Source: a bacterium
Lineage (GTDB): Bacteria; Patescibacteriota; Saccharimonadia; Saccharimonadales; SZUA-47
Assembly (NCBI GenBank): GCA_030427445.1
Contig: JAUIBQ010000002.1
Coordinates: 101 to 64,100 of the forward strand
Reading direction: 5' to 3'
DNA: 64,000 nucleotides
This document shows positions 46,915 to 63,813 of this stretch, piece after piece (position 1 is the first letter of the stretch; every line of letters begins with the position of its first letter). The notes under the pieces are model-generated. The model made no database searches and had not been told where the DNA came from. It worked only from the letters and a program-made list of their open reading frames with translations. The translations under genes were made by a program, and so were the position numbers.

Positions 46915-47343
46915 CTAGACGACGTTATCAACGCTGTTCGCTGTACCGAGTACGAATCGAACGATAACTTGCGCTAACGCAACTACTACAAGGCCGATAA
47001 CCGCATAAAGGATGGTGTTCTTAGCACCAGATACGCTGTCTGATGAACCTTGGGAAGTGATGTATTTCACGCCACCTACCATAATCATGACAACAGAAAT
47101 GATACCAATAATCCACGAGAATAGGTTAATCGCATCAATAACTAGTTGGTTAACATTGTTTCGACCTGCGTCAGTCGCTGTGCCACCGCTACAGGTAGCA
47201 TTAAGATTGAGCTGAGACCCTTTACAAAGTCCTTCTTCTGTATTGTTCTGAGCTACAGCAACTGTCACAGGCACAAGTGGTGCGCCGAAGGTAGCAAGGC
47301 TCAAAATCGCGGTCATCATAAATGTTTTAATTTTTTGGATCAT
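46915..47343 (-). CDS. T4SS pilin-like protein, paralog 1 (signal peptide + variable Cys-pair ectodomain + conserved two-helix C-terminal domain)
   Basis: C-terminal IIGIISVVMIMVGGVKYITSQGSSDSVSGAKNTILYAVIGLVVVALAQVIVRFVLG shared by 7 tandem ORFs; VirB2/TrbC-like topology. Confidence 0.6.
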   Translation of the reverse strand: MIQKIKTFMMTAILSLATFGAPLVPVTVAVAQNNTEEGLCKGSQLNLNATCSGGTATDAGRNNVNQLVIDAINLFSWIIGIISVVMIMVGGVKYITSQGSSDSVSGAKNTILYAVIGLVVVALAQVIVRFVLGTANSVDNVV

Positions 47344-47439
47344 TATTATTTTCTCCTTTTATTAGAAAATACCTACATTTTCATGTGTTTACGCACTTAA
47401 GTGTATCTGGTTTTATGAAAAAATTCTAGTGTTTTAGCT

Positions 47440-47886
47440 TCAAGAATTAGCAATGTCTGCAGTAGTGCCGAGTACAAAGCGTACTATCAGTTGTGCTAGT
47501 GCTACTACTACGAGGCCGATGATAGCGTAGAGAATGGTGTTTTTCGCTGCAGTGACATTGCCTGAATCACCCTGAGAAGTGATGTACTTCACACCACCAA
47601 CCATGATCATAACGACTGCGATAATGCCAATCACAAGAGAGAAAAGGTCTATTGCGGTCGCGATAAGTTCTGAAATTTGCTCTTCAGCTATACCAAAATC
47701 TGAACCACAGTCCACAGCGTCTTCGTCTATGTTCGCACCTCGACATAAATTTTCTTGAATGTCCTGCGCTCCGACTTGCGGTGAAAGAAACGGCACAAAT
47801 AGTAGTCCTGTGACCATTAGCACCACAGCCGGGAAGTGTACAATCTTTGATGCGAGAAGCGCGAGTGAATGTGATGAATTAAACAT
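47440..47886 (-). CDS. T4SS pilin-like protein, paralog 2
   Basis: VIGIIAVVMIMVGGVKYITSQGDSGNVTAAKNTILYAIIGLVVVALAQLIVRFVLG; Cys pair LCRGANIDEDAVDC. Confidence 0.6.
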   Translation of the reverse strand: MFNSSHSLALLASKIVHFPAVVLMVTGLLFVPFLSPQVGAQDIQENLCRGANIDEDAVDCGSDFGIAEEQISELIATAIDLFSLVIGIIAVVMIMVGGVKYITSQGDSGNVTAAKNTILYAIIGLVVVALAQLIVRFVLGTTADIANS

Positions 47887-47904
47887 ACTAACCTTTCAAT
47901 TACT

Positions 47905-48312
47905 TTATGCAAAGAATCCGAGGACGAAGCGAACAATGAGCTGTGCAAGTGCGACGACGACGATTCCGATTGCTGCGTATATGATAGCATTCTTTGCTTG
48001 AGAAACCTTCTGTGAGTCTCCTTGAGAGGTGATGTAGCGTAAGCCTGCCAGCATAATCATCAATACTGCGATAATGCCAGCGACAAAAGAAAGTAGGTTT
48101 AGTGCTGATTCAAGTCCATTATCAATAGTTACGTCGTCTGTGTCATCGGTGCATGAAGCATTATTGTCGATAACTCCAAGTGATTCACATGCAGCATCTG
48201 AAGAGTTATTTTGAGCATGTACCAGTTGCGCCGGAAAGAAAAGACTGAATAAAAAGACACCTGTGATAAGAAGCTTGCTAACTGAAGTTAATTTTCTCGT
48301 CATATCGTACAT
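47905..48312 (-). CDS. T4SS pilin-like protein, paralog 3
   Basis: VAGIIAVLMIMLAGLRYITSQGDSQKVSQAKNAIIYAAIGIVVVALAQLIVRFVLG; Cys pair ACESLGVIDNNASC. Confidence 0.6.
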   Translation of the reverse strand: MYDMTRKLTSVSKLLITGVFLFSLFFPAQLVHAQNNSSDAACESLGVIDNNASCTDDTDDVTIDNGLESALNLLSFVAGIIAVLMIMLAGLRYITSQGDSQKVSQAKNAIIYAAIGIVVVALAQLIVRFVLGFFA

Positions 48313-48322
48313 TATAAAACCC

Positions 48323-48727
48323 TTAGTTTATTAGCTCTCCAATAACAACTGAGACGATGGCTTGAGCAAACAGGACAATCACGATACCTATTACAGCATA
48401 TATCATGAGGTTTCTTGCACTGTTAAACTTCTGTGGATCGCCGTCAGACGTCATCATCTGGACACCACCAACAATAATTATAATAACTGCAATAATACCT
48501 GCCACGATTGAGAGGATATTGAAAACACTTCTAAATAAACCGTCCTCACCACTAACGGGGTCTTCTGTGCTCTGTAAATCTTGGCATATCGGTGAACTAG
48601 ATGAGTCATTTCGACACACTTCGTTGATAGCATTACTTTGTGCACCGACCAAGGTAGGCGATAAAGAAATCAGGATAACGAATAGCAAAGCCAGAGTCGA
48701 TAGAGATGTTTTTATGCTCGTTATCAT
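48323..48727 (-). CDS. T4SS pilin-like protein, paralog 4 (more divergent)
   Basis: VAGIIAVIIIIVGGVQMMTSDGDPQKFNSARNLMIYAVIGIVIVLFAQAIV; Cys pair VCRNDSSSSPIC. Confidence 0.55.
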   Translation of the reverse strand: MITSIKTSLSTLALLFVILISLSPTLVGAQSNAINEVCRNDSSSSPICQDLQSTEDPVSGEDGLFRSVFNILSIVAGIIAVIIIIVGGVQMMTSDGDPQKFNSARNLMIYAVIGIVIVLFAQAIVSVVIGELIN

Positions 48728-49014
48728 AGTGCCCCCGCAACAAATCTTATAATTGAAGTTGCAAGTGCAGCAATGATAATTCCGACTATTGCGTATATGA
48801 TTGTATTTCTTGCATTTTTTGTTTTCTGTGGATCACCTTGTGAAGTTATGAAATTAATGCCAGCAACAATAATAACTACAGTCGCAACAGCAACCACCAA
48901 GATAAATACCCACCCCATTATGGTGTCTAAGCCTGCTTCCTGATTTTCATTTTTAGGCAAACCAGTAAGGTCGTCTGGGTTGATATTAATCTGAGAAAGC
49001 TTGTGAAAATACAT
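48724..49014 (-). CDS. T4SS pilin-like protein, paralog 5 (core only; lacks signal peptide and Cys-containing variable domain)
   Basis: VAVATVVIIVAGINFITSQGDPQKTKNARNTIIYAIVGIIIAALATSIIRFVAG; overlaps paralog 4 start by 4 nt. Confidence 0.5.
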   Translation of the reverse strand: MYFHKLSQININPDDLTGLPKNENQEAGLDTIMGWVFILVVAVATVVIIVAGINFITSQGDPQKTKNARNTIIYAIVGIIIAALATSIIRFVAGAL

Positions 49015-49015
49015 A

Positions 49016-49468
49016 TTACCCTCCCAGAGTCCTTCCTACATATGCAACAATTTGTGATGCAATAAGCACTATAGCGAAACCAATAGCAGCGTTTATAACT
49101 GTTTGGCGCGCTTTTGTAGCGTTGTCAGGATTGCCTTGAGATGTAATAAACTTAAACGAACCCCAGAAAATCATAACTAATGCTACGAATGTTGACGCCT
49201 TTAATAACCCTTCAAGGATGGTGATGCCTATCACTAAAGAAGTATTGACTTGCTCTTCTTCGTCGCCGTCACCTAAAGAAGGCTGACAATCCCCCTCTTC
49301 ACTTTCTGGTAAATAGTTATACCATGCAGGTATAGTGAGAAAGCTGTCTTGACACCTCACCGGTAGAGCATGGGCTTTCTGGGGAGCGGCATTGCTAGCG
49401 ATAGCCAATGCACTAAAAATAACTATCAAACTAACTGTCATCTTTAAAAATATAGTCTGCAGCTTCAT
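49016..49468 (-). CDS. T4SS pilin-like protein, paralog 6
   Basis: FVALVMIFWGSFKFITSQGNPDNATKARQTVINAAIGFAIVLIASQIV; Cys pair RCQD..DCQP. Start set to ATG 49468 (signal peptide MKLQTIFLKMTVSLIVIFSALAIASNA) because the longer ORF-track version overlaps paralog 7. Confidence 0.5.
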   Translation of the reverse strand: MKLQTIFLKMTVSLIVIFSALAIASNAAPQKAHALPVRCQDSFLTIPAWYNYLPESEEGDCQPSLGDGDEEEQVNTSLVIGITILEGLLKASTFVALVMIFWGSFKFITSQGNPDNATKARQTVINAAIGFAIVLIASQIVAYVGRTLGG

Positions 49469-49508
49469 TACAAATATCATATACCATTTATTAGCCAAAG
49501 ACCAAAGC

Positions 49509-50057
49509 CTAGAGCACTCCTCCTGGCACGAGGAAATTAAGTAAACCATACCCAAACACGAATAGTGCTAGTGCAACCAGAGCCCAAACGATACGTTTTT
49601 TAGCTGCAGCAACCGCCGCCGGATTATCGCGAGCCGACATATATTGATATCCAGCAAACATGACTGACGCGACTATCGCCATAATGGCTAAGGCAGACAA
49701 AAAGTTAATCGCAATTACTAGATAGTTAATGATCGTACAATTGTCTTTACTAAGAGCTACACCATTACCTGGCTCACAGTTATTTGGATCTGAGGCGTCA
49801 AAACCACTTACACCTTCTGTTTCGCTAACACACGCTCCATCTATAGAGCTAGTCCCGATTTGGCACTGACAATACTCTGCTGTAACTGCTCTTCCAGCAA
49901 CTACTTCTGTTTCTGTAGTCCATGTACCACCAGACGCTTTGCATGCTTCTTCATCAGCAGAGACTGTGGGTGGTGCTACAAAAAACAGAAAAACACCTGT
50001 TGCTAGAATCGCGACTATGAGTGAGTTGATTATATAAATTTTTATTTGATTAAGCAT
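49509..50057 (-). CDS. T4SS pilin-like protein, paralog 7 (largest, Cys-rich ectodomain; first gene of the pilin operon)
   Basis: FLSALAIMAIVASVMFAGYQYMSARDNPAAVAAAKKRIVWALVALALFVFGYGLLNF; seven Cys in ectodomain. Start set to ATG 50057 (RBS aaagg). Confidence 0.5.
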   Translation of the reverse strand: MLNQIKIYIINSLIVAILATGVFLFFVAPPTVSADEEACKASGGTWTTETEVVAGRAVTAEYCQCQIGTSSIDGACVSETEGVSGFDASDPNNCEPGNGVALSKDNCTIINYLVIAINFLSALAIMAIVASVMFAGYQYMSARDNPAAVAAAKKRIVWALVALALFVFGYGLLNFLVPGGVL

Positions 50058-50160
50058 TTTATTACCTTTATATTTTATAGTATACAAACATTTAATACTA
50101 TGTACAAAAATAGTATTTGTGTACATAGTACTTACGTTTTTAATATCAATGGTTTATTGG

Positions 50161-50166
50161 TATAAT
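50161..50166 (+). promoter_or_regulatory. TATAAT -10 box in divergent promoter region between pilin operon and T4SS operon
   Basis: ttattggTATAATtttactaattcaagggggcatcTTG; flanked by TGTACA-N16-TGTACA palindromes at 50099-50126. Confidence 0.4.
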
Positions 50167-50188
50167 TTTACTAATTCAAGGGGGCATC

Positions 50189-50821: not shown

Positions 50822-50878
50822 ATACCTCTTATACCGATATGCCCTTAGTTAATAATATGCTAGTATTCACTCATAGAA

Positions 50879-53800
50879 ATGCAAAGAAATAAAAGCAAAG
50901 CCATCATCTTAAATAAAATTCGAGCACAACAATTGTTTGTAGTTGCTTATTTCATGATACTACTTATAAACATGCTCGGTTTGTTTAACGTAGGTCAGGT
51001 TAGGGCTGCTCCTTTCTATGAAAACATACAGACAGACTACACAGTGTACAACCTTCTAGTGGGCTTTTCTTACAGTTGTGGTGTTGATGGAGGCGATGAC
51101 AGAAGGATGAGTCTCGACGACATGAATGATGTCTACGATAACGACGAAGGCAACGACAACGCAGGATATGACGGAAACAATTATGAGTCAGATCCTGGTA
51201 AGAGAATAAACTTGGGCTTATCTACAAGTGGTTTTGGTGTCATTGATGGTATGGCAAGTTGTGACGAGATAGCGACAGAAGCAGTCACCAGAATTATGGA
51301 TTATTATGAAATTGACAATGACAGGCCAACTGATGCAGATGAAGCAAAATCATACATAATTAACTTCTTATCAGTGAGCGCAGGTGACACCAAGGAAGAC
51401 ATGATTGAGTACATTGAAAGTCTTGAAGGTGATGGACTAAAAGACGTCCTGGGAATCAACAGCACTATAGAACTAAGAAGTAATGCGTGGCGCAATTTTG
51501 TAGATACCATTACTGAACCGATGTTTGAAGAAATTGGTCAGAGCTTAGTCGATAACGTAACTGAGATTGACCTCGCTAACTGGATCGCACCAGCCTTAAA
51601 CTACTGCTTAGACTGGTCCGACACAGCACCTCAAAATAACGACGATATACGAATTGATTTATCTAGTACGGCTGGACTATATGGGTTTACTCCGGTAGAT
51701 GGCTATAGCGAAAGTAGGATGAGTGAAGTATTTTCTTCTTTTGATAAAGGAAGCGACGGAAAACTATTTGCAGGAAAATCTTGGGCTAGTATCGCTGATG
51801 GAGAGTTTTATTTTCTGTTTAGAGATTATGCTCGTTACCCATCTGAAAATAGTGGCGCTTTTCATGACGCCTATGAGGCATTTATAGATACAACAACAGC
51901 ATATCTTAGTGGAGGGTGGAGTTTGGTAGTGGGTCCTGACGACTCTGAAGAAGGGTATTTTTATCCTTTCGGTTATTCAAGTGAACTATTCTTTGACGAT
52001 GTACCTAGTGCTCGTTCACATAATGAAGGCTTCCGAAGAGGCGGTTTACTATCTTGCCAAAATATTGAGGAAAATGTTAGCAAGTTTGACGATGGTATGG
52101 AGGGAAAAGGAGACGGTAGAAACATTCAGGCTAAAGCACCTACCGCAGGTACGGGTGTGCCCCAGAATACAACTGGCAATGGAGGCGAAGCTGTCGCTGC
52201 TCAACCAAGCTGTGAGTCTCAAGGAGGAGCATTTAGTTTTATCCTTTGTCCAGCACTGGAGGCTATGGGAGACGGGTTTGTCTGGTTCGATCAGAGAATC
52301 GAAGATGCTCTTGTGGTTAATACTTCATATATTACAAACGACGGGACTCGCGATGCATGGAACAATTTTAGAAATATTGCCTATATATTACTTATTCCGA
52401 TAATGCTCGTGATGGTTATTGGCACAGCATTGAATTTCAATTTCCTAGATGCTTACACAGTCAAGCGTGCTCTTCCACGCTTATTTGCAGCGGTAATCTT
52501 TATAACACTTTCCTACAGTATCTGCCTCTTGATGATTGAGGTCACCAATGTCATAGGTGCAGGCACTAGAGGTCTAATATCCTCACCATTTGGCGGAACA
52601 GAAGCGTTAAGTCTAGAAAATATATTTAACCCTCCTGGGGCAGGCGGTACAGCTTTATATGGGTTAGCAATATTTGGTGGTATCGGCATAGCTGCGCTGT
52701 CGGGTGTGACCATTGGCTCATTGTTTGTCACAGTTGCGCTGGGGGCATTGGCGCTTTTGATAGTTTTTGTACTTTTGTATCTTCGCGAACTACTTATCAC
52801 TTTACTTGTCATTCTCGCACCACTCGCAATTGTTGCATGGATTTTTCCTGGCAATGATAAACCTTGGAAGTTTTGGTGGCAGGCATTTTCAAAAATGCTG
52901 TACTTTTTCCCGGTGGTCATCGCAGTAATAACATTCGGTAAGGCTTTTGCTTCAATCGTAGATGTGGTTGCTGGTGAAGACGGAAACGTCATAACAACCA
53001 TGATAAAAATAGTTGCATATGTAGGCCCATACTTCTTTATTCCGAAACTCTTTACTATGGCGGGTGGTGCATTGGGTAATATAGCTGGTATGGTGAACGA
53101 CAGAAGTAAAGGTGTCTTTGACAGAGGGCGTAAGGCTCGCGAAGGAATGAAAGCAAACCAGAGACAACAAATTAAGGCTGGCGGTGGAGGAGTTTTTGGG
53201 GTCGGAAAGAATAGTAGAATCGGAAAAGGTTTTGGGTCTATGGGAGCGGGTGCATACGGTATAGGTAAGTCTCTTTCTGATAACGGTGTCGCTGGATTAA
53301 GTAGAGGAAATATCACAGCAGCACGACGAGCAAACGAAGCTATTCATGGTAAAAAGATGCTTGACGATGATCATGATATGGGTGTATGGGATGGAAATGA
53401 TACTGTTTCGGGTATCAGCTCTGATTTAATGACGGGTAATGTCACTGGTTTAGCTCTACAACTGTCGAGAGCTCATGGCTTAAGCGAGAGTGATGCCATG
53501 GCGGAGGCTCGAGGAATGGTATCACAGTTTAGAAGAAACTCAGGACAGGGACTTGAGAATGCATTTTCTCGTATTGGCGGTATGGAAGGTGCCGAACTAC
53601 GAACTGCTGTTGCACAAGTCCAAACAGCTAGAGGAAAGTACTCTGACGATATTTTATCAAGACATCTTGTTGAAAAAGCAATGGCAGGAGGAACTTACTA
53701 TAAAAACTCTGGTGAAGCTTGGCATGCAGCAGGTCTTGCAACAGAAGGCAACGAAAATGCTGTTGCCTCAATGAACGTGACGGGCAGAAAAGCTCTTATT

Positions 53801-54412
53801 GGTGCGGGACAAATTATAGATGGGGGTGCGGGATTTGGCACAACAAGAGGGGAGATGCTAACTGCTGCCTCTGCTGGAGGGGAGAGGAGTTTCGATGAAA
53901 TATCTCAGTCACAGCGCAGGTACGAAACTGCAGCAATGGAGTCAAAGTCTATGCAATCTCTCCTACATGAACAAATGAAGGCTGGCAACTACGACAAAGT
54001 TGCGAGCTTCTTGCGAACGAATATATCTGAAGCCTATGAGTCAGGCGATCAGAGACGTATTGAACAGGCTGTTGCTGTTGCAGAGCAGGCGCATGTGATA
54101 GCAAAAAACGCTAGTCCAGCAGCAGACAGAGCAGTGTCTGAAGTCATGGACATGCCAGTTTATGTAGGCATGTCGTCCGCTAATGCAAACAGCCCATTCA
54201 ATCGGGACCCTACGGGAAGACGCATATTGTCCGCTCAGGAACGTGATGCACCAACAGTAAGGCAAGAAACTCATCGTCTGGGTAGAGATTCTGGTACATA
54301 CCAAGACATTCAAAGACAATATACAGAGGCCGAATATCAAGGTCAATCTCAAATTATGGGAAGAACCCCTGATGTAGGAGCAAGTACACCAGGACCCACT
54401 GAAGGACTTTAA
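50879..54412 (+). CDS. Giant polytopic membrane protein, VirB6/TrbL-like channel component with large extracytoplasmic N- and C-terminal regions
   Basis: Signal/TM at N-terminus, ~450-aa acidic ectodomain, central block of >=6 TM helices, Gly-rich C-terminal ~400 aa. Confidence 0.45.
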   Translation: MQRNKSKAIILNKIRAQQLFVVAYFMILLINMLGLFNVGQVRAAPFYENIQTDYTVYNLLVGFSYSCGVDGGDDRRMSLDDMNDVYDNDEGNDNAGYDGNNYESDPGKRINLGLSTSGFGVIDGMASCDEIATEAVTRIMDYYEIDNDRPTDADEAKSYIINFLSVSAGDTKEDMIEYIESLEGDGLKDVLGINSTIELRSNAWRNFVDTITEPMFEEIGQSLVDNVTEIDLANWIAPALNYCLDWSDTAPQNNDDIRIDLSSTAGLYGFTPVDGYSESRMSEVFSSFDKGSDGKLFAGKSWASIADGEFYFLFRDYARYPSENSGAFHDAYEAFIDTTTAYLSGGWSLVVGPDDSEEGYFYPFGYSSELFFDDVPSARSHNEGFRRGGLLSCQNIEENVSKFDDGMEGKGDGRNIQAKAPTAGTGVPQNTTGNGGEAVAAQPSCESQGGAFSFILCPALEAMGDGFVWFDQRIEDALVVNTSYITNDGTRDAWNNFRNIAYILLIPIMLVMVIGTALNFNFLDAYTVKRALPRLFAAVIFITLSYSICLLMIEVTNVIGAGTRGLISSPFGGTEALSLENIFNPPGAGGTALYGLAIFGGIGIAALSGVTIGSLFVTVALGALALLIVFVLLYLRELLITLLVILAPLAIVAWIFPGNDKPWKFWWQAFSKMLYFFPVVIAVITFGKAFASIVDVVAGEDGNVITTMIKIVAYVGPYFFIPKLFTMAGGALGNIAGMVNDRSKGVFDRGRKAREGMKANQRQQIKAGGGGVFGVGKNSRIGKGFGSMGAGAYGIGKSLSDNGVAGLSRGNITAARRANEAIHGKKMLDDDHDMGVWDGNDTVSGISSDLMTGNVTGLALQLSRAHGLSESDAMAEARGMVSQFRRNSGQGLENAFSRIGGMEGAELRTAVAQVQTARGKYSDDILSRHLVEKAMAGGTYYKNSGEAWHAAGLATEGNENAVASMNVTGRKALIGAGQIIDGGAGFGTTRGEMLTAASAGGERSFDEISQSQRRYETAAMESKSMQSLLHEQMKAGNYDKVASFLRTNISEAYESGDQRRIEQAVAVAEQAHVIAKNASPAADRAVSEVMDMPVYVGMSSANANSPFNRDPTGRRILSAQERDAPTVRQETHRLGRDSGTYQDIQRQYTEAEYQGQSQIMGRTPDVGASTPGPTEGL

Positions 54413-54449
54413 GGAAAATTACGTAAAACTGTTATAATACTAGTGTTTT

Positions 54450-55607
54450 ATGGCCGTTTATAAAGTACCACAAGATGTCGAGGCAGAGGACAAGTTTTTA
54501 GGTCCTTTGACGTTCAAGCAGTTTCTCTTTTTCGGAGGAGTGTTAATCTTTGGATACATCACATTTCTTACAGCAACTAAGGTGGTGTTTCTTGCTCCGG
54601 TTTTCGCTATCCCTACGCTCGTTTTTGCCGTGCTTGCGACACCCTGGAGCAAAGACCAGCCGACGGAAGTGTTCTTAGGTGCTCGCTTCCGGTTTTTCTT
54701 CAAACCACGCAAGCGTATCTGGGACCAGACAGGCATCAAAGACTTAGTCAAAATCACCGTGCCAAAACGTGAAGCTCATGTGTATTCAGACGGCCTCTCA
54801 CAAGGTGAGGTGAGAAAACGCTTTGGTGCGTTAGCAACGATGGTAGACAGCCGTGGCTGGGCTGTAAAGAGCGTTCCGGGACTTTCACAAGTCAACGTAG
54901 CAGAGCAGAGTGACCGACTTGTCGAAGCTCCTCAGCAAGCTCCAAGTCAAAACGAAGCGATTTTAGCGCAGACTGAAGATGTGCTTGATGAAGACACCGG
55001 TGTCGTCGGAAAAAGTCTCGACAACATGATCGCTCAGTCAGAGCAAAAACATAAAAGTGAAACTCTGAAAATGATTCAACAAGCCCGTCAGGGTGGTGGG
55101 GGAGATACGAGTGCACCTAGCTTAAGCCCAGCACAAAAAAATAACACTGCCAAACCTAAAGCTGACCAGAACTCTCAAGATTTCTGGTTTATGCATCAGC
55201 AAAACGGCCAGGGTGGGCAAGCAGCCCCAGACCCTTCGCTCGCAACATTTAGCAACTCAACTGTTGTGTCTCCTGGAAGCACCACTCAACAAACCACAAC
55301 TCAGTCTGTTAAAGACGACCCCGTAGATGAGCAAGCAGTGTTGGATAAAATCCACGAAAAAGAGCGTAGAGACGCACTGCAGACACATTCACATCATGGC
55401 AAAGTAGTAAACCCGGACGGCACTGTACCTCAACAAAACGAAAGCCAAACAACAGAAGAAAAAAAGGATAAGCAAAACGTGACTACTCCTGTTAATCCTG
55501 ATATACTGAACCTAGCATCTAACAGAGATTTGAACGTTGCTACGATCCAGAGGCAAGCGAATAAAAAAGACGACGGCCAAGACGAAGTCGTGATTTCGCT
55601 TCACTAG
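54450..55607 (+). CDS. PrgI-family (VirB3-like) T4SS protein with long low-complexity C-terminal extension
   Basis: N-terminus MAVYKVPQDVEAEDKFLGPLTFKQFLFFGGVLIFGYITFL + second TM matches PrgI family hallmark (VP.D...EDK...G.LT..Q + 2 TM). Confidence 0.55.
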   Translation: MAVYKVPQDVEAEDKFLGPLTFKQFLFFGGVLIFGYITFLTATKVVFLAPVFAIPTLVFAVLATPWSKDQPTEVFLGARFRFFFKPRKRIWDQTGIKDLVKITVPKREAHVYSDGLSQGEVRKRFGALATMVDSRGWAVKSVPGLSQVNVAEQSDRLVEAPQQAPSQNEAILAQTEDVLDEDTGVVGKSLDNMIAQSEQKHKSETLKMIQQARQGGGGDTSAPSLSPAQKNNTAKPKADQNSQDFWFMHQQNGQGGQAAPDPSLATFSNSTVVSPGSTTQQTTTQSVKDDPVDEQAVLDKIHEKERRDALQTHSHHGKVVNPDGTVPQQNESQTTEEKKDKQNVTTPVNPDILNLASNRDLNVATIQRQANKKDDGQDEVVISLH

Positions 55608-55677
55608 TATCAAAACTGATTCAAACGTTAGAATCAGTTTTGAAGTAAGGGTGGGAGACCAGTAAATACACGAAAAT

Positions 55678-56484
55678 ATGCAGCCGCAAAACCAATATCC
55701 TAATCAACCTGCTGGCATGCCTGGAAACCCAGGTCAGCCTGTTGCTCAGTCGCCAAAAACCAACCCAAATAGCACACAAAACACGTTGCAGATTGCAGAA
55801 ATCCGTGACGGAATCGTCATCATGAATGACGGTAGTTTCCGAGCTGTAGTCGCGTGTCAGAGCATCAACTTTGACCTCATGAGTCCTGAAGAGCGTGAGG
55901 CTGTTGAGTACAGTTATCAAGGATTTTTAAACTCGCTTTATTTTCCAGTACAAATATTTGTCAGAAGTCAGAAAGTAGATATCCGACCATACATTGAAAA
56001 GTTGGACAAAATCCGCTCAGAGCATGACAACATGCTTTTAGCACTTTTAATGGAGGACTACATTGGCTTTATGTCTTCACTCGCACAAGAAACAAACATT
56101 ATGGATAAAAAATTCTATGTTGTCATCCCGTATTTCAAGTCAGTAGACGGTCAACAGCTAGTAGAGCAGAGTAAGGGCTTTTTCCAGAGTTTTATGGGTA
56201 AAAAAGAGGAAAAGGTTGTGATCAACGAGCAAGACCTTGAAAAAGGTAAGGCAGAGCTTAGGAATCGCATCCAGGCAATTATGGCCGGACTCCAGCAATG
56301 TGGAGTGCAGTCCGTACCTCTTGATACACAAGAATTGATTGAACTTTACTACGATGCGTATAACCCAGATACTGCGACACGCCAGCAGATTACACGATTT
56401 GACGGCATGCTCAACACTGACGTCATCGAAAAAGGGCAGGGCGATGCAGCTCAACCGCAACTAGATAAGGAATTGGGTAGTTAG
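55678..56484 (+). CDS. VirB4/TrbE N-terminal domain-like protein (separate ORF) with Pro/Gln-rich leader
   Basis: IAEIRDGIVIMNDGSFRAVVACQSINFDLMSPEEREAVEYSYQGFLNSL resembles the start of CagE/TrbE/VirB4 N-domain; stop TAG 2 nt before GTG of the ATPase ORF. Confidence 0.45.
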   Translation: MQPQNQYPNQPAGMPGNPGQPVAQSPKTNPNSTQNTLQIAEIRDGIVIMNDGSFRAVVACQSINFDLMSPEEREAVEYSYQGFLNSLYFPVQIFVRSQKVDIRPYIEKLDKIRSEHDNMLLALLMEDYIGFMSSLAQETNIMDKKFYVVIPYFKSVDGQQLVEQSKGFFQSFMGKKEEKVVINEQDLEKGKAELRNRIQAIMAGLQQCGVQSVPLDTQELIELYYDAYNPDTATRQQITRFDGMLNTDVIEKGQGDAAQPQLDKELGS

Positions 56485-56486
56485 TC

Positions 56487-58403
56487 GTGGGATTATTCGG
56501 AGGAAAACCAAAACTCGATCCAGTTGCTCAAGCACAGCTTCAGCAAGCCCAGGAGCAAATGGAGGTACAGGCAGCATTTCAAAAAGGCGTGACTGCACTT
56601 CGGGACTTCATCGCACCGGCAAGCCTAGAGTTTGAAAGTTCGATGTTTAAGATCGGCACGCGGCTCGCGCGCACCTATTTCGTGTACGGCTACCCTCGGC
56701 AAATTTATACAGGCTGGCTTTCTAGTATGATCAATCTCGATGAGGTGATCGATATTTCAATGTTTATCTACCCGGTTGAGAGTCAAGCAGTTCTCGAAAA
56801 CCTCCGTAAAAAAGTCGGTCAGCTCGAAGCAGGTATCCAAATCGACGCTGAAAAAGGTCGCGTGCGTGACCCACAAAAGCAAGCAGCTATCCAAGATGCT
56901 GAAGAGTTACGAGACAAGCTCCAGGTGGGCGAAGAGCGGTTTTTCCGCTTTGGTCTGTATTTCACTGTATACGCAAACAGTCCTGAGGAGATGGAGTTCG
57001 TTACGCACAAGGTTGAGAGTATGCTCGGTCAACAGCTTGTGTACTCAAAACCTGCAAGCGCACAACAAGAACAAGGTCTAAACTCGACAATCCCACAATT
57101 CACCGACCAGCTACAAATCCGCCGTAACATGAACACAGGAGCTATCAGCACGAGCTTCCCATTCACGAGCTCTGATCTATCTCAAGAAAACGGCATTCTC
57201 TACGGTATCAACATGCACAACTCAGGCCTTGTGATCTTTGACCGTTTCAGCCTTGAGAACGGCAACTCTGTTGTCTTCGCGAAGTCAGGCGCTGGTAAAA
57301 GCTTTACCGTGAAGCTCGAAGCGCTTCGAAGCATGATGTTTGGCACTGAAGTGTTTATTATCGACCCAGAAAACGAATACCAGAGAATGGCGGAAGCTGT
57401 AGGCGGCGCGTATGTACGACTAAGCCTAAACTCCACAACACGAATCAATCCGTTTGACTTGCCGCAAGTCGTAGACGGGGAAGAGGCAGACAACGCGCTG
57501 CGAAGCAACCTCATCACCCTCCACGGACTTCTTCGTCTCATGATGGGTGGTGCACAAGCGCAAATGGCAGGCCAACAAGGCGCAATGATGGCGCCAGCAC
57601 TCAGTCCAGTCGAAGAATCAGATCTTGACCAAGCTCTCATCGAAACCTACGCAAAAGTCGGGATTACAAATGACCCATTAACTCATAAATCTCAGCCGCC
57701 AACTATCGCTGATCTCTACGATACACTCCTCCACATGGGAGGCACCGGACCGCAGCTAGCGCAACGACTGCGAAAGTACACCACAGGTACATTTGCCGGT
57801 ATCTTTTCACAGCAAAGCAACGTAAATATCAACAACCCGTTGGTGGTATTTAATATTCGTGACCTTGAGGATGAGCTTCGACCAGTCGCAATGTACATTG
57901 TCCTAAACTACATCTGGAACAAAACAAAATCTGACCAAAAGAAACGTTTGCTTGTTGTTGATGAAGCGTGGCAACTAATGAAATACGAAGATTCGGCAAA
58001 CTTTATGTTCTCTCTTGCGAAGCGTGCTCGTAAATACAACCTTGGCATCACAACCATTACGCAAGACGTCGAAGACTTTATGGGCTCTCGTATGGGGCGT
58101 GCTATCGTCGCCAACTCTAGCATGCAGCTTCTACTAAAGCAGTCGGCATCGGCGGTTGATGTACTTAGTGACGTCTTTAAGCTGACGAGTGAGGAGAAGA
58201 AGCGTCTTAGTCAGTTCCCAGTGGGTCAAGGCCTGTTCTTTGCTGGTCAAAACCATGTGCACATCCAAATAGTTCCTAGCCAGACAGAGGCTTCTCTTAT
58301 CACGACCAATCCAGAACAGGTGAAGCAGCTCGAGCAGCAGCAACAAAATCAGCAAGTCGACCTTAATCAAACAGGATATAATGATACTGTGAATCTACGA
58401 TAG
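56487..58403 (+). CDS. virB4: VirB4/TrbE/PrgJ-family T4SS ATPase (C-terminal part)
   Basis: Walker A VFAKSGAGKSFTVK, Walker B RLLVVDEAWQLM, motif ITQDVEDF; GTG start. Confidence 0.8.
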   Translation: MGLFGGKPKLDPVAQAQLQQAQEQMEVQAAFQKGVTALRDFIAPASLEFESSMFKIGTRLARTYFVYGYPRQIYTGWLSSMINLDEVIDISMFIYPVESQAVLENLRKKVGQLEAGIQIDAEKGRVRDPQKQAAIQDAEELRDKLQVGEERFFRFGLYFTVYANSPEEMEFVTHKVESMLGQQLVYSKPASAQQEQGLNSTIPQFTDQLQIRRNMNTGAISTSFPFTSSDLSQENGILYGINMHNSGLVIFDRFSLENGNSVVFAKSGAGKSFTVKLEALRSMMFGTEVFIIDPENEYQRMAEAVGGAYVRLSLNSTTRINPFDLPQVVDGEEADNALRSNLITLHGLLRLMMGGAQAQMAGQQGAMMAPALSPVEESDLDQALIETYAKVGITNDPLTHKSQPPTIADLYDTLLHMGGTGPQLAQRLRKYTTGTFAGIFSQQSNVNINNPLVVFNIRDLEDELRPVAMYIVLNYIWNKTKSDQKKRLLVVDEAWQLMKYEDSANFMFSLAKRARKYNLGITTITQDVEDFMGSRMGRAIVANSSMQLLLKQSASAVDVLSDVFKLTSEEKKRLSQFPVGQGLFFAGQNHVHIQIVPSQTEASLITTNPEQVKQLEQQQQNQQVDLNQTGYNDTVNLR

Positions 58404-58430
58404 GTATGAGAGGGCGCGCGTAAAAACAAA

Positions 58431-61400
58431 ATGTATCCAGGACCAGGTTCAGTTATAACACCAGGAGGGTCTAGTACAGGTCCTGATAATGACCCGAGAA
58501 ATCCAGTCGCTAAACCTTGGAGTGATGAAGAAATCGCTAAAGGCGTTCAACAACTAGAAGATCATGCAAATGATCCAAAAAACGCTACTAAAAATTCCCA
58601 GTCTGCGGCTAAGGGTGAATCAAACACCTCTCCGCATAAGGGGAATGAAAGTTCAGCTCTTGATGAAGAAAAAGGTAAGTTTAGGACTTCTTTAAGCGAC
58701 AAGCTTCGTCAGGATAATTCTTTAGTTGGCCTCGCAAAGCGACACAGAGCACGACTTGCTTTGGCCAGTGCAACTTTTGGAGTTGCTGGACTAATGGTTG
58801 GTGGTTTTATTGCTGCTCCAAGTTTTATACTGTCTCACATAAGCACCCTTATTACTGACAAGACAAGCGAGCTTCAAGTTAATAGTCAAGCAAAGTATCG
58901 CCGTTCGAAATTCGCTAGTTTCACTGACAGATTTACAATAGACGGCAGAAGATCTGGTGCGCTCATTGCAGAAATGAAGAAATTCGGCTATAAGATCGAC
59001 GTTAAAAATGGTACATTCCAAGCACCAGGTGGCTCATCAAAACCACTAGCGGAAGCTGGCGAAGAATTCTCAGAATTTATGGACCAACGCTACAAAATTT
59101 TTGGTGTACCGACACGTTCGCAGACATGGAAAACAAAACGTACTGATGCGCTTTTTAATAGGCATAATGTCGTGCGGTCATCTTCCGTGACATCTAAACC
59201 AGGCGATCTAGAAGACCCAGAGATACAGATGAACAAAACTCAGAATAATTCAATTAATGAGGGTAGCGAGATTGATACAAGCATAGATGAGTCTCCGGCA
59301 AAGAGAGATACTGACTCCGGGAATGAAAATATAGATAGCGATAATGAGAGCTATAATCAAGCTAATGATGAAGCGGCTGAAGCATTGGTACCAGAGGATA
59401 ATGTGTTTAGGCAAGCTGCTGATGATCTTGCCGATGGAGTAAGTATTAATGAACTTGGCGGGGTTGGACCTATCGGTGATGAGCTTGATCTTGGCTATGG
59501 CCCAAATCTCGTAAAAGCAGAGGTGAGAAGGAGTCTTCTTAGTCCCGGTGGGGCAGCTGCCGGAGCTGTTACCATTGCTAAGTCTGCACTTTTACCTGCA
59601 GATATAGCCGACAAAGCATGTACCGCAAATTCACGTCTCGATATGGCGGTAAAAGTGGCGAGAGCTGCTACAAGCGTCAAAATGATGCGCGCAGCTTTGG
59701 TGTTTGTAAGTGCAGATGATGGACAAAGAAGACAGGAAGCATCATTTGATTTAATGATGCAGATAGTTAAGCGAGTGATGTTGAGTGATAAAGCTATGGG
59801 AAATTTTGCTAATTCGGCAGGCTTTCAGTTTGCAAGTAATGGCTCTTTTAGTAGGTCAGCGCTGGAGAATCAGCCTTCTAAATTTAATACTTCTGGAAAG
59901 CTTTCTGCATTTTGGGGTGCCGTACGTAGTGCGACCGGAAAGATACCAGGATGTAGCGTATTGGGAAATACGGCATTTCAAATAGGTCTTGGGATTGGTG
60001 CGGTAGCATTGTCGATAGCGGTTCCAGGATCTGGCGCCGCTGCAGGCACAGGGGTTAAAACAGCACTACAAACTGCTGTACAGGGATTTTTTACAAAAAA
60101 AGCTCTGACTGGTATACTTGCGGGGCTGATAATTGATTACAGTTTTGAAGAAATACTGAACTTAACTACGTTATATGTGCAGAAACAACTCACTATGGCA
60201 ATCACAGGACAAGAGACTGGGGGCATGTATTCGAGTCTTTTATTCTCAGGAGCGGGAGTTCTTACTAAACAGAGATTCTTAAATGCTGGACAGGTACCCG
60301 CGACAGCCACACAATACGCACAAGCACGAGACATATTCCTAGCTGAGAAACGTGAAGAATCTAAAAATAAATCACTTGCTCAAAGATTATTTGATTTCTC
60401 TGATTATGACTCTCTCGCATACCAAACCACAGCCACACTTGCTTTGAATAGCGGCACACCTTCTGCTGCGATATCAAATTTCGGCACCAGTGTAGCGAGC
60501 CTGCCTTCATTAATGACAAATACCGTTACATCACTAACAACCGGCCGCGCATATGCTCAAGATTCTGATGAGCAATTAGCGTTCGACACAATTAGCATAA
60601 ACGGCACAGAATACGCGACAGATCCATCGGGTAATCTTCTCACGATCATGCGTGACGATATAAGCAGTATAGATGTTGATGAGAACCTTCAAGAATTAGA
60701 AGACGAAGGACATATAAGCAGTGAAGCTACAGGCTACGAACCAAAAAGTAGCGAGTTTACTACTTTTATGGAGTTATGTATAGACTCTGTCGATCAAATA
60801 AGCGCCATGGAAGAGGGAGAAGATTGTGCTGGCACAAAAACATTAACTAAGAAATTCTATGCGCATCTAGCATATTTAGACTCGATTGACTTCATAGATA
60901 GCTCACTGTTCTCGAACGAAATCAGTAGCTATGGCAGTGGCAGTAGTACACAACCAACTAACGCACCGAATGCATACTCAGTATCTGCGATTGAACCGGC
61001 GGAGGGATTGATACAAGGCACAAGTATCGAAGCACAGGACACAAGCAATATGGAATGCCCTATAAGTGACACCGTGCAAGACTTAGGCATAGAAACTGAG
61101 GCCTATGTAAAAGGAGTGAGGTACAGTGTTAGACTGTGCGCAGTACATGGTATTCGCATAAATGTCCTTATTGCTAAACAACTTGATGACATGTTAAATG
61201 AAATGGCTGACGAAGGCTATACCGTACGTGGAAGCGGTGGCTTTAGGGATCACGCAAGCCAAGTAGCAGGGTATGCTGGTGGCGCAGGGGCAGGGACGTT
61301 TGCAAAACCAGGATATTCAAATCACCAATTCGGACTGGCTATCGACTTCAGTTGTCAAGGACAAGGACAAAGTTACACAGCTGGTACGGGTAGATATCGA

Positions 61401-61568
61401 GATAGCTTCTTGCAAAACCTTAGTCAGTACCCTTGCCTGGAGTGGTTATCCAGAAATTCACCTCGCTATGGACTTCTTAACTCGTGTGTAGCCCAGGGGT
61501 CTCAAGGTGAAATTAGAGCAACTTCGGGTGGCTGTGAATGGTGGCATTTTTCACCTGATGGGAAATAA
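58431..61568 (+). CDS. Large T4SS-associated membrane protein with C-terminal peptidase M15 (VanY/D-Ala-D-Ala carboxypeptidase-like) cell-wall hydrolase domain
   Basis: C-terminus SNHQFGLAIDF (SxHxxGxAxD) and CEWWHF (ExxH) zinc-peptidase motifs; TM segments at ~110 aa and ~520-560 aa. Confidence 0.6.
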   Translation: MYPGPGSVITPGGSSTGPDNDPRNPVAKPWSDEEIAKGVQQLEDHANDPKNATKNSQSAAKGESNTSPHKGNESSALDEEKGKFRTSLSDKLRQDNSLVGLAKRHRARLALASATFGVAGLMVGGFIAAPSFILSHISTLITDKTSELQVNSQAKYRRSKFASFTDRFTIDGRRSGALIAEMKKFGYKIDVKNGTFQAPGGSSKPLAEAGEEFSEFMDQRYKIFGVPTRSQTWKTKRTDALFNRHNVVRSSSVTSKPGDLEDPEIQMNKTQNNSINEGSEIDTSIDESPAKRDTDSGNENIDSDNESYNQANDEAAEALVPEDNVFRQAADDLADGVSINELGGVGPIGDELDLGYGPNLVKAEVRRSLLSPGGAAAGAVTIAKSALLPADIADKACTANSRLDMAVKVARAATSVKMMRAALVFVSADDGQRRQEASFDLMMQIVKRVMLSDKAMGNFANSAGFQFASNGSFSRSALENQPSKFNTSGKLSAFWGAVRSATGKIPGCSVLGNTAFQIGLGIGAVALSIAVPGSGAAAGTGVKTALQTAVQGFFTKKALTGILAGLIIDYSFEEILNLTTLYVQKQLTMAITGQETGGMYSSLLFSGAGVLTKQRFLNAGQVPATATQYAQARDIFLAEKREESKNKSLAQRLFDFSDYDSLAYQTTATLALNSGTPSAAISNFGTSVASLPSLMTNTVTSLTTGRAYAQDSDEQLAFDTISINGTEYATDPSGNLLTIMRDDISSIDVDENLQELEDEGHISSEATGYEPKSSEFTTFMELCIDSVDQISAMEEGEDCAGTKTLTKKFYAHLAYLDSIDFIDSSLFSNEISSYGSGSSTQPTNAPNAYSVSAIEPAEGLIQGTSIEAQDTSNMECPISDTVQDLGIETEAYVKGVRYSVRLCAVHGIRINVLIAKQLDDMLNEMADEGYTVRGSGGFRDHASQVAGYAGGAGAGTFAKPGYSNHQFGLAIDFSCQGQGQSYTAGTGRYRDSFLQNLSQYPCLEWLSRNSPRYGLLNSCVAQGSQGEIRATSGGCEWWHFSPDGK

Positions 61569-61576
61569 AGAACTTT

Positions 61577-63109
61577 ATGACTAAAAAATCATTCCTACTC
61601 ACCTCGATTACGGCAATCATCATGACATTAACTGCGATACTTTTACAGTTTTCCATTGTGACTGCACAAGAAGAGGAGGAATGCACTGAGGCACAATTAC
61701 GAGCACAGGGAGTTATTGTGGTTTCTTGCAACCCTTTACCGGCAGAGAACTGCACAACTGTGGGTACTGTAAGCAGCAGAAACCCAGCCACTTCTGAGTA
61801 TTTATCTATTACTTATCCTGAAGCACTTGATAGCATCCCTGATTTGGCACAAAAAATTGATACTTTCATAGCTAGTAAGAATTCAACAACCCCATGGAAT
61901 GGACTAGGTTCCTTTATCATAGAAGAAAGTAAAAAGTACGACGTCAACCCTGTTTTTATAGTTGCCACGGGCAGGTCTGAAACTGGCTTCAGAGGGTCGA
62001 GTTCAAGCAGGTACAACTATTTTGGTATTAAAAACTCCAGCTCTACATATCGTCAATTCACAAGTGCAGAGGAAGGAATTGCATACTTTATTTCTACCAT
62101 ACCGGAATATTTAAGCGGAGAGAGATCAGGAGGAAGGTATCAAGGTATAAATACGGTATATGAGTACTCCTCAATACATCAAACTGGTAGCGTTGTTTAC
62201 CCAGGAGAGCCATTCGATCCTAACGATATCGATGAAAAGAAGGGGAACACTCAAGACTTATGGGACCCTGCAATGGCCGTGTATGTGAGCTGGGACGAAA
62301 ACGCTAACAACAGGCCTGAAGTAAACCCAAAATACAAAGGTAACGTATATAACCCGCTCAATTATTACAAACTAAATATTGAGACTTTTAATGGCATCCT
62401 TGGTTTAAACTTGCCTGATACACCTGGTGGAGTCACGGCTCAGTGTGGGTCTTTGACTGCTGGTGCATCTGGCTGGGACCTGCCAGGAGAAGGAGCGAAT
62501 CCTATGGTTTACTACTCCCAGAGAAGGTCTGGAGATGATACTGCTTTAAGTGCTGACGCATTACGTGAGGTTATTGGTAGGTCCTTTAATTATCCCTCGG
62601 GATATTTCGGCAACGACAATTATGGTCCAGGACCGATAGCGCATTGCGGATGCGGTCCGACATCGTGGGCAATGATTGTCAGTACGCTTACTGGTGAAGT
62701 TACGACACCTACCGAAGTAGCTGAATGGGCGAACGAGAATGGTTGGCAATCTGACGGTGATCCTTGCGGTGGATCTAATTGGTGGTGGAACTCCCAAGAA
62801 TCTTCCGAAGCGAAATGGAAAGTATCAGCAACCCCTATAACCATCTCGGATGCACCCGATGCATTACGCTCGGGCTCTTTAATACTGGTTTCTGCAGGAT
62901 CAGGACCATTCACAAGCGGAGGGCATCTTTTAGTGATGAGAGCTGTGACAGATGATGGGAAATTCTTATTTGCAGACCCTAATGACTATAGAGATACTAG
63001 ACAGGCAGCATTCAATGTGTTTAACGGCGAAAGTAAGAGTCGCACACCACTAAGTGAAGAGCAGTTTATAGGCAGTATAAAAGGGCTATGGGAGGTTAAG
63101 CCATTATGA
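61577..63109 (+). CDS. Secreted cell-wall hydrolase: glucosaminidase (FlgJ/Mannosyl-glycoprotein endo-beta-N-acetylglucosaminidase-like) + C39-like/CHAP-like cysteine peptidase domain
   Basis: Signal peptide; ATGRSETGFRGSSSSRYNYFGIK (glucosaminidase motif); CGPTSWAMIV ... GGHLLVMRAV (Cys/His peptidase_C39_2-like). Confidence 0.55.
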   Translation: MTKKSFLLTSITAIIMTLTAILLQFSIVTAQEEEECTEAQLRAQGVIVVSCNPLPAENCTTVGTVSSRNPATSEYLSITYPEALDSIPDLAQKIDTFIASKNSTTPWNGLGSFIIEESKKYDVNPVFIVATGRSETGFRGSSSSRYNYFGIKNSSSTYRQFTSAEEGIAYFISTIPEYLSGERSGGRYQGINTVYEYSSIHQTGSVVYPGEPFDPNDIDEKKGNTQDLWDPAMAVYVSWDENANNRPEVNPKYKGNVYNPLNYYKLNIETFNGILGLNLPDTPGGVTAQCGSLTAGASGWDLPGEGANPMVYYSQRRSGDDTALSADALREVIGRSFNYPSGYFGNDNYGPGPIAHCGCGPTSWAMIVSTLTGEVTTPTEVAEWANENGWQSDGDPCGGSNWWWNSQESSEAKWKVSATPITISDAPDALRSGSLILVSAGSGPFTSGGHLLVMRAVTDDGKFLFADPNDYRDTRQAAFNVFNGESKSRTPLSEEQFIGSIKGLWEVKPL

Positions 63110-63813
63110 TGAACAGCAATAAGGCCAAGCTAATAGTTGCGGCCCTACTTTTTATTGGTGCAGTTGTTCTTTTTATACTTAGTTTTGTGAGCAACCCTGC
63201 AAACGATACAGCTGAAGAGCCAATCTTCGCAGACACTCCAGCACTGTTTAGTGGCGAGTATTCAGAATTACTAAATAGCCTTCCTACTGCGTCATTTGAA
63301 TTACTTAGAGAGGATGTAAAGTATCTTGGCGTAGAATCGTTTGATGAGTATAGAAAACTTGAGGAAGAAGTTATATTCTTCGTTAACGGAGAATCAATAA
63401 GCACTCAAAATGACACCATGTCGTTTAGCGGATACTTTGAGATTAATGAAGAAGAACCTGTACAAACAACAGTGGAGATTTTATCAAACAACCGTATTAA
63501 CGTCGTCTTCAATCAGCAGCTTATTGAGCTAGACCCAAACCAACTTCCATCAAACTCTCCAAGAAATAACTTTATATCTACATTACCAGAGCAAAGACCA
63601 GGCTATGACATAGAATACGATATTGATGCAGATAGCTTCATAGTTAGGCTGTATGAGTTGGATGCGCAAGAGGCCGCAGTGGATTATATATCAGCTAAAA
63701 TAGAAGACCCGAATTATTCAGAGAAAATTGAAATAATACCTCTTGGGTCAACGAATTTTGAGCGGTTTGAGAGTATTTATCCTACTAATGGCGCTGAGGT
63801 AGTAGGGCCTTAA
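63106..63813 (+). CDS. Hypothetical membrane-anchored protein (possible VirB8/PrgL-like periplasmic component), last gene of T4SS operon
   Basis: N-terminal TM LIVAALLFIGAVVLFILSF; 4-nt overlap with upstream gene. Confidence 0.35.
   Translation: MMNSNKAKLIVAALLFIGAVVLFILSFVSNPANDTAEEPIFADTPALFSGEYSELLNSLPTASFELLREDVKYLGVESFDEYRKLEEEVIFFVNGESISTQNDTMSFSGYFEINEEEPVQTTVEILSNNRINVVFNQQLIELDPNQLPSNSPRNNFISTLPEQRPGYDIEYDIDADSFIVRLYELDAQEAAVDYISAKIEDPNYSEKIEIIPLGSTNFERFESIYPTNGAEVVGP

Follow-up and report, generated by a model that had tools for sequence, protein, structure and literature searches.

Homologues of TrsD are the most abundant type IV secretion system (T4SS) component in Patescibacteria, with 2,272 representatives of which 1,664 adjoin virB4 (Quiñonero-Coronel et al. 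2025, PMC12102498). The TrsD homologue of Candidatus Southlakia epibionticum is essential, as are the peptidase and lysozyme genes that lie downstream of virB4 in the same organism; in Gracilibacteria, TrsD homologues are reported as not associated with virB4 (PMC12102498). The transposon-sequencing tables of Wang et al. 2023 list three adjacent S. epibionticum genes, SEML1_0010 (PrgI), SEML1_0009 (882 nucleotides (nt), annotated as 'hypothetical') and SEML1_0008 (1839 nt, a TraC-like P-loop protein) (PMC10633639); the latter two overlap by 1 nt, and both were scored as essential (PMC10633639 supplement). Here we analyse the corresponding gene pair in a 64,000-nt stretch of a Saccharimonadales genome (lineage SZUA-47; GenBank assembly GCA_030427445.1, contig JAUIBQ010000002.1, positions 101 to 64,100), referred to below as the window. 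In it, an open reading frame of 268 amino acids (aa) with VirB4-like N-terminal sequence (ORF1, 55678..56484, + strand) is followed after 2 nt by one of 638 aa carrying the motifs of a VirB4-type ATPase (ORF2, 56487..58403, + strand). We put at roughly 85% the probability that ORF1 and ORF2 are real genes, translated separately, whose products jointly make one VirB4-type motor of a Saccharibacteria T4SS.

By every comparison made, the window pair is the orthologue of SEML1_0009/0008, with essentiality being reported for the SEML1 genes only. The two pairs share a phylum, an operon (pilins, VirB6-like, PrgI, TrsD-like, VirB4 and hydrolases), similar gene sizes (807 and 1917 nt in the window) and a tight juxtaposition. 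Whereas the S. epibionticum genes overlap by 1 nt, the window pair has a 2-nt gap and a GTG start, giving TAG-tc-GTG in place of the commoner TAATG; nothing substantive differs. A second close parallel is found in pSK41 (NC_005024), of the pSK41/pGO1 class (MPF_FATA, pGO1 subclass), where TrsC (VirB3-like), TrsD (227 aa) and TrsE (672 aa, 'DUF87 domain-containing') follow one another in the order of PrgI, ORF1 and ORF2. The break falls at the same point on the VirB4-like CD1110 profile, TrsE beginning at position 183 and ORF2 at 168, and TrsE and ORF2 align end to end (26% identity, E 1e-39). The small proteins are further apart: on the NCBIfam 'TrsD/TraD family' model of this class, NF041427, pSK41 TrsD itself scores 227.6 bits, whereas ORF1 matches positions 15-142 of 201 with 27.6 bits (E 2.2e-6), does not reach the cut-off of 200, and so falls outside this narrowly defined family. 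The settings differ as well, in that the pSK41 system serves DNA conjugation and includes a relaxase and a coupling protein, whereas the Saccharibacteria system is chromosomal, is equipped with pilins, and is reported to be essential for epibiotic growth.

The single-chain ATPases of VirB4/TrwK/TraC/PrgJ type (R388 TrwK, structures 7O41 and 8RTD; the C-terminal domain of T. pseudethanolicus VirB4, 4AG5) have the fold of both parts and the Walker A and B motifs in common with the window pair, but the window polypeptide is broken inside the N-domain, and the identity in structural alignments is only 8-15%. In R388, two VirB4 copies are present per protomer, the central one binding VirB3 and the outer one binding VirB8 tails. 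Literature searches for an explicit description of a 'split VirB4', or for a function of pIP501 TraD, returned nothing beyond the TrsD statements cited above, and the main text of Guglielmini 2014 does not name TrsD. The split arrangement itself is already published. In the Patescibacteria papers (PMC10633639, PMC12102498) the small protein is a TrsD homologue with 'no function assigned', and neither fused Berkelbacteria forms nor profile tiling appear there; what we add is this tiling, a VirB4-specific fold match, and a fused Berkelbacteria clade with a disordered linker.

ORF1 extends from an ATG to a TAG at 56482-56484, which is followed by a 2-nt spacer (TC, 56485-56486) and the GTG of ORF2; the whole TAG-tc-GTG junction occupies 56482..56489 (+). 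Relative to ORF1, ORF2 lies in frame -1/+2, and a TAG at 56478-56480 closes the ORF2 frame two codons ahead of the GTG. An AAGGAA motif resembling a Shine-Dalgarno (SD) sequence lies at the 3' end of ORF1, within its conserved D-K-E-L codons (56467..56472, +), 14 nt before the ORF2 start, and may serve to recruit ribosomes to it. The initial annotation of this region had described the two frames, their starts, their stops and their difference in phase, had noted Walker A and Walker B in ORF2, and had seen no slippery heptamer at the junction. On re-checking the sequence we find the coordinates to be exact; the motifs are GAGKS (ORF2 aa 268-272, nt 57288-57302) and LLVVDEA (aa 488-494, nt 57948-57968), and the last 84 nt of ORF1 contain no heptamer of the form X_XXY_YYZ. 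The start of ORF1 can be placed with less certainty than that of ORF2, because the N-terminal tail of ORF1 is of low complexity and variable in length: aa 1-37 (55678-55790) are Q/P/N-rich, are modelled with a predicted local distance difference test score (pLDDT) of ~50, and differ in extent among homologues, whose total lengths run from 255 to 340 aa.

We assign ORF1 firmly as a detached N-terminal module of VirB4, by the tiling of the two ORFs on VirB4 profiles, by fold, and by natural fusions. On NCBIfam models, ORF1 matches positions 2-104 of 752 in VirB4 CD1110 (E 1e-6), 98-233 of 894 in VirB4_plasma (E 9e-6) and 19-174 of 792 in TIGR00929 (E 4e-4). ORF2 continues on each of these further along, from 168 to 734 of CD1110, from 292 to 893 of VirB4_plasma, and from position 215 onward of TIGR00929, so that the pair tiles a full-length VirB4 without overlap. 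In its surroundings, too, ORF1 resembles TrsD: the protein is small and soluble, and its gene lies between one for a VirB3-like protein and one for a VirB4 shortened at the N-terminus. Direct comparison of a 38-sequence ORF1 profile with pSK41 TrsD by hhalign gave a probability of 79%, where 90-95% is the usual level of confidence, with E 1.6e-5 over 174 columns at 20% identity. At least 7889 homologues of ORF1 exist; the best 120, including the 97%-identical P0001, are all 255-422 aa long and each has a precomputed match to PF26593 'TraC-like'. A local Pfam scan of ORF1 itself returned PF11130 TraC_F_IV alone, at 17.5 bits against a cut-off of 28.1, and the PF26593 assignment therefore rests on homologues as proxies.

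A fold search was needed, because the ORF1 sequence profile does not reach VirB4 structures. The AlphaFold2 model of ORF1 (mean pLDDT 76) comprises a folded core at about aa 38-235, with pLDDT near 90, between the disordered Q/P/N-rich tail at aa 1-37 and a second disordered tail at aa 236-268. When this model was compared with the PDB using Foldseek, the 14 best matches were all to R388 TrwK/VirB4 (probability ≥0.99, E 2e-3 to 3e-2), with 130-225 aligned columns and TMq up to 0.45, and all further matches had a probability of ≤0.2. The resemblance to the VirB4 N-terminal domain proposed in the initial annotation is therefore real, in that homology of the 268-aa ORF to VirB4 N-domains is detected, weakly by sequence and with fold and fused homologues in agreement. 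It does not, however, encompass the whole N-domain, since ~230 residues that precede Walker A in ORF2 still belong to it. Rather than separating the N-domain from the ATPase domain at their boundary, as had been supposed, the break lies inside the VirB4 N-domain, at about profile position 105-168 of 752. A similar order of secondary-structure elements in the model of a fused homologue had raised the idea of an internal N-domain duplication, in which ORF1 would be a paralogue of the module still present in ORF2; hhalign of ORF1 against the N-terminal part of ORF2 gave a probability of 0.15%, and we reject the idea at the level of sequence.

ORF2 reaches 375.3 bits on the NCBIfam VirB4-like CD1110 family model NF045971 (cut-off 325, E 6e-112), and falls under the cut-off on TIGR00929 (129 bits versus 643) and on the remaining VirB4 models. 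Pfam identifies P-loop_TraG, AAA_10 and DUF87 in it. The protein begins with the second part of the VirB4 N-domain (~aa 30-250), continues into a RecA-like ATPase domain, and does not carry a complete N-domain on its one polypeptide, as its late entry into the CD1110 and VirB4_plasma profiles makes plain. As a proxy for ORF2, the C-terminal domain of a fused homologue, to which it is 51% identical, superposes on 4AG5 with a TM-score of 0.83. ORF2 is best described as a TrsE-type short VirB4, with a predicted role as an ATPase. We also examined whether ORF2 might belong to a defence system, given a PADLOC match of its P-loop domain to mads_8 (E 1e-22; ORF1 has no PADLOC match); the similarity is generic to HerA/FtsK-like proteins, and in view of the T4SS context we reject this reading, although such a match could mislead automated defence-system annotation.

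Natural fusions carry the two parts on one chain. Among the 150 best representatives of ORF1 at 50% identity, 149 are 125-478 aa long and one, P0210, has 898 aa. Its residues 13-240 align with ORF1 (35% identity) and its residues 323-887 with ORF2 residues 31-610 (51% identity), the two parts being separated by a Pro/Ala-rich linker of ~80 aa. P0210 is found in identical form on five contigs, which come from three or more samples and on which it adjoins a PrgI-like gene, and it matches the full-length VirB4 profile in one stretch, residues 3-882 corresponding to positions 92-893. Its AlphaFold2 model shows a disordered linker (residues 214-314, pLDDT <50) and aligns colinearly with TrwK over 926-950 columns. 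About 66 clusters of fused proteins of 850-910 aa have the same architecture, and their sources name them Berkelbacteria or Patescibacteria. These fused proteins hold the two modules in the same order as the window pair and likewise beside a PrgI-like gene, but they do so in a single ORF, with a disordered Pro/Ala-rich linker of ~80-100 aa where the window has a stop, two nucleotides and a start.

We considered whether Berkelbacteria might contain both split and fused forms, and rejected this: the apparently short proteins P0336 (582 aa) and P0340 (578 aa) are internal-start miscalls. The intact ORFs behind them, of 906 and 868 aa (L088, 3029-5749 of CP066695.1; L090, 3131-5737 of MEZX01000002.1), include the TrsD-like module, and the public annotation leaves ~950 nt of these loci as 'non-coding'. 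A true split, with a 131-nt spacer, does occur in another patescibacterial contig (L092).

To place the junction in a wider context we scanned one genome per GTDB species with sequence patterns. At least 578 species encode a relative of ORF1, and we analysed the 80 best loci. The scan was seeded with the closer of two alignments (A2), the diverse one (A1) being too divergent, and the 80 loci accordingly represent relatives at 63-75% identity; for those further away, coverage extends to their lengths only, through the representative search that yielded P0210. Comparison of orthologous loci for fused and split forms, as the initial annotation had suggested, reveals the split in every one of these 80 Saccharibacteria loci. 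ORF1 ends in a stop codon in 80/80 (TAA in 55, TGA in 16, TAG in 9), and a homologue of ORF2 with its own start lies downstream in 80/80 (ATG in 70, GTG in 8, TTG in 2), both TTG starts (L035 and L084) being artefacts of the automated start search. The commonest junction is a 1-nt overlap of stop and start (TAATG/TAGTG, gap -1), seen in 49 loci; two loci overlap by 4 nt, 11 have gaps of 0 to +5 nt, and most of the remainder have 13-486 nt between the genes. The frame of ORF2 relative to ORF1 is 2, 1 or 0 in 55, 15 and 10 loci, respectively. Because same-frame junctions (for example TAA-ATG) and long spacers occur, a shared frameshift is ruled out. The split arrangement is the norm in Saccharibacteria, and not an oddity of this genome.

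The start of ORF2 is marked by similar regularities. Its N-terminal peptide, M/V-G/A-(L/F)-FG-K-K-x-P-x-LDPVA, is kept across species from codon 1, and a 97%-identical relative, sequenced in two independent assemblies (L002 and L003), has the same TAG-tc junction as the window with ATG in place of GTG. Both observations favour 56487 as the true ORF2 start. A GGAG, GAGG, AGGA or GGGA motif is present at -20 to -4 of the ORF2 start in 73 of the 80 loci; the SD-like AGGAG/GGGAG sits 8-14 nt upstream of the start, within the conserved D-(K/R)-E-L codons of ORF1, while loci with long spacers have a GGAGG of their own instead. Such long spacers open with short tandem repeats of 6-8 nt (GTTTACA x3, GGAAGTT x3, (C/T)AAGTTT repeats, AAGTTCA x3), placed directly after the ORF1 stop in L008, L040, L056, L062 and L084. 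L033, whose spacer measures 486 nt, is a further example, and the window has no spacer of this kind; the repeats may mark an insertion hot spot or act in regulation.

We compared the window pair (55678-58403) with that of L002 (8001-10726) to assess selection. Protein identity is 97.0% for ORF1 and 98.7% for ORF2, and nucleotide identity is 83%. The proportion of synonymous differences (pS) is 0.77 in ORF1 and 0.70 in ORF2, near saturation, against a nonsynonymous divergence (dN) of 0.02 and 0.013, for a ratio of nonsynonymous to synonymous substitution (omega) of ~0.006. Purifying selection on both ORFs is very strong, and unusually so for an ATPase pair of a secretion system. Conservation across the locus (window 46915-63813, L002 1196-16533) is mosaic: identity is 97-99% for HSP20, ORF1 and ORF2, 84% for PrgI, 46-80% for the pilins and 42% for VirB6. 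The VirB6-like proteins (1177 aa in the window, 915 aa in L002) have an unrelated N-terminal region of ~440 aa, and the downstream hydrolases are non-homologous, L002 having VldE-like, GDSL lipase and phage lysozyme genes. Parts that face the envelope or the host diverge or are exchanged, while the cytoplasmic motor stays all but fixed, and within that motor ORF1 evolves at a rate similar to that of ORF2.

The 80 split loci, the purifying selection on both ORFs, and the division of pSK41 TrsD/TrsE at the same point together support the genuine two-polypeptide VirB4 that the initial annotation had offered as one of several explanations. Another of these sees a single VirB4 gene of ~900 aa interrupted either artificially, by a 1-nt indel from sequencing or assembly, or recently, by a frameshift that makes it a pseudogene; it draws on the different frames of two ORFs lying 2 nt apart and on the existence of ~900-aa fused proteins in other Patescibacteria. 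It is refuted by the stop and separate start in all 80 loci, at junctions that vary in sequence and frame, include same-frame cases, and have spacers of up to 486 nt; by the omega of ~0.006 on both ORFs; by the identical TAG-tc junction with ATG in an independent assembly; by the in-frame TAG two codons before the ORF2 start; and by the orthologous pair in a cultured organism with a closed genome, annotated there as two genes that are both essential. We consider an error or lesion to be next to impossible. Programmed recoding, whereby some ribosomes would shift frame or read through to make a fused VirB4 beside the two separate products, is scarcely more credible to us. The tight juxtaposition of the genes would suit such a mechanism, and VirB4 evidently also works as one covalent chain in the fused orthologues found elsewhere, but the last 84 nt of ORF1 hold no slippery heptamer, just ~4 nt separate the TAG that closes the ORF2 frame from the ORF1 stop, and read-through of the ORF1 TAG would continue for 35 codons in the wrong frame relative to ORF2, to a TGA at 56590. 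Nor is the frame relation conserved among the 80 loci, many of which have long spacers.

A different kind of alternative accepts two genes and the descent of ORF1 from the VirB4 N-terminus, but has the protein act alone, as an assembly factor, a regulator or a PrgI/VirB3 adaptor, and not as a stoichiometric subunit. The Gracilibacteria homologues reported without association to virB4 speak for such independence, as do species in which 64-486 nt lie between the genes and ORF2 has its own SD. Against it stand the near-universal adjacency of the genes and the dominance of overlapping stop and start; the similar evolutionary rates of ORF1 and the motor (97% and 98.7% identity), where the envelope-facing parts retain 42-84%; the colinearity of the fusions; and the fact that ORF2 is missing exactly the segment that ORF1 supplies. 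We regard a stand-alone role for ORF1 as unlikely.

Several observations weigh against a two-polypeptide motor with ORF1 as its N-terminal module, or at least against parts of it. The scores of ORF1 on the VirB4 and TrsD models are far under the curated cut-offs, and a profile of 38 ORF1 relatives, when compared with all PDB sequences, produced no match at E ≤1. The model of P0210 has a predicted template modelling score (pTM) of 0.45 and a root-mean-square deviation from TrwK of ~21 Å, such that its inter-domain geometry is unreliable and the packing of the N-module cannot be read from it. At the junction itself, the SD-like motif lies 14 nt from the start, which is longer than optimal, and that start is a GTG.

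As to how the two polypeptides would come together, a coupled two-polypeptide VirB4 motor is the most likely mechanism. Ribosomes that terminate at the ORF1 TAG, or that are recruited by the SD-like AAGGAA, would start ORF2 at the GTG, and translational coupling of this sort would give roughly equimolar products. The initial annotation's suggestion of a translationally coupled pair is borne out only as far as sequence goes, through the TAATG overlap that dominates among relatives and the SD-like AGGAG/GGGAG in the last codons of ORF1. The two polypeptides would then associate non-covalently into a complete VirB4 protomer. The N-terminal domain of R388 VirB4 (residues 15-400) has VirB3 wrapped around it (PMC9259494); by analogy, the ORF1 module may supply the membrane-proximal surface for this contact. 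The split is probably ancestral in Saccharibacteria. Conjugation systems of pGO1/pSK41 type in Gram-positive bacteria have it too, and the same parts are fused in Berkelbacteria and their allies.

The pair sits in a complete Saccharibacteria-type T4SS locus. It is encoded with other T4SS components, namely PrgI, six T4SS_pilin genes, a TrbL_3-like homologue and VanY, glucosaminidase and C39_2 proteins, and the operon reads VirB6-like, PrgI/VirB3-like, TrsD-like, VirB4 and cell-wall hydrolases. All of the closest relatives are Candidatus Saccharibacteria/Saccharimonadales genomes in which the gene order is identical. Upstream, six VirB2-like T4SS pilin genes occupy 46915..50126 on the minus strand (46915-47343, 47440-47886, 47905-48312, 48323-48727, 49016-49555 and 49509-50126), all matching Pfam PF18895 T4SS_pilin (E 4e-6 to 5e-16). 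This cluster diverges in orientation from the core operon, a layout shared by L002 and by another of the Saccharibacteria loci, L001. With the first possible start taken for each ORF, the last two pilin ORFs share 47 nt; their equivalents in L001 and L002 abut without overlap, and the true start of 49016-49555 is probably further downstream.

The core operon opens with a VirB6/TrbL-like polytopic membrane protein of 1177 aa (50879..54412, +), which has no direct Pfam match at E ≤0.01 and is 42% identical over 745 aa to an L002 gene product with PF19590 TrbL_3. The PrgI/VirB3-like protein that follows (54450..55607, +, 385 aa) matches Pfam PF12666 PrgI (E 3e-12; 47.3 bits, cut-off 27) over aa 5-90 only. 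Its C-terminal extension of ~295 aa has no family match, and its relatives are 382-396 aa long, whereas the Berkelbacteria PrgI-like genes encode just 130-140 aa. Downstream of ORF2, cell-wall-remodelling genes identified with Pfam span 58431..63813 (+): a 1045-aa protein with a VanY/M15 C-terminal domain (58431-61568, +), a 510-aa protein with glucosaminidase and C39_2/CHAP-like domains (61577-63109, +), and a 235-aa protein with no Pfam match (63106-63813, +). Equivalent genes come after virB4 in L001 too.

For annotation, these results mean that the pair should be neither flagged as a pseudogene nor 'repaired' into one coding sequence, and that ORF1 is better named a TrsD-like VirB4 N-terminal module than a 'hypothetical protein'. 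Few machines are known to be indispensable to Saccharibacteria as epibionts, and the T4SS is one of them. Our findings leave the picture of T4SS biology unchanged and amount to a modest consolidation of published observations; at the same time, the tiling, the VirB4-specific fold match and the natural fusions yield a concrete, testable assignment of TrsD as the subunit that completes VirB4. We also entertain, as a rather doubtful idea, the possibility that the break in VirB4 is functional and not neutral, in that a separate VirB3-facing N-module would allow ATPase subunits with and without the module, or on-demand docking of the motor. The fused (Berkelbacteria) and split (Saccharibacteria, pSK41) states both occur at the same hinge, so that a swap of states would be a natural experiment on this idea; were it true, the architecture of the inner-membrane complex in monoderm and patescibacterial systems would be set by the TrsD-like protein, acting as a regulated adaptor.

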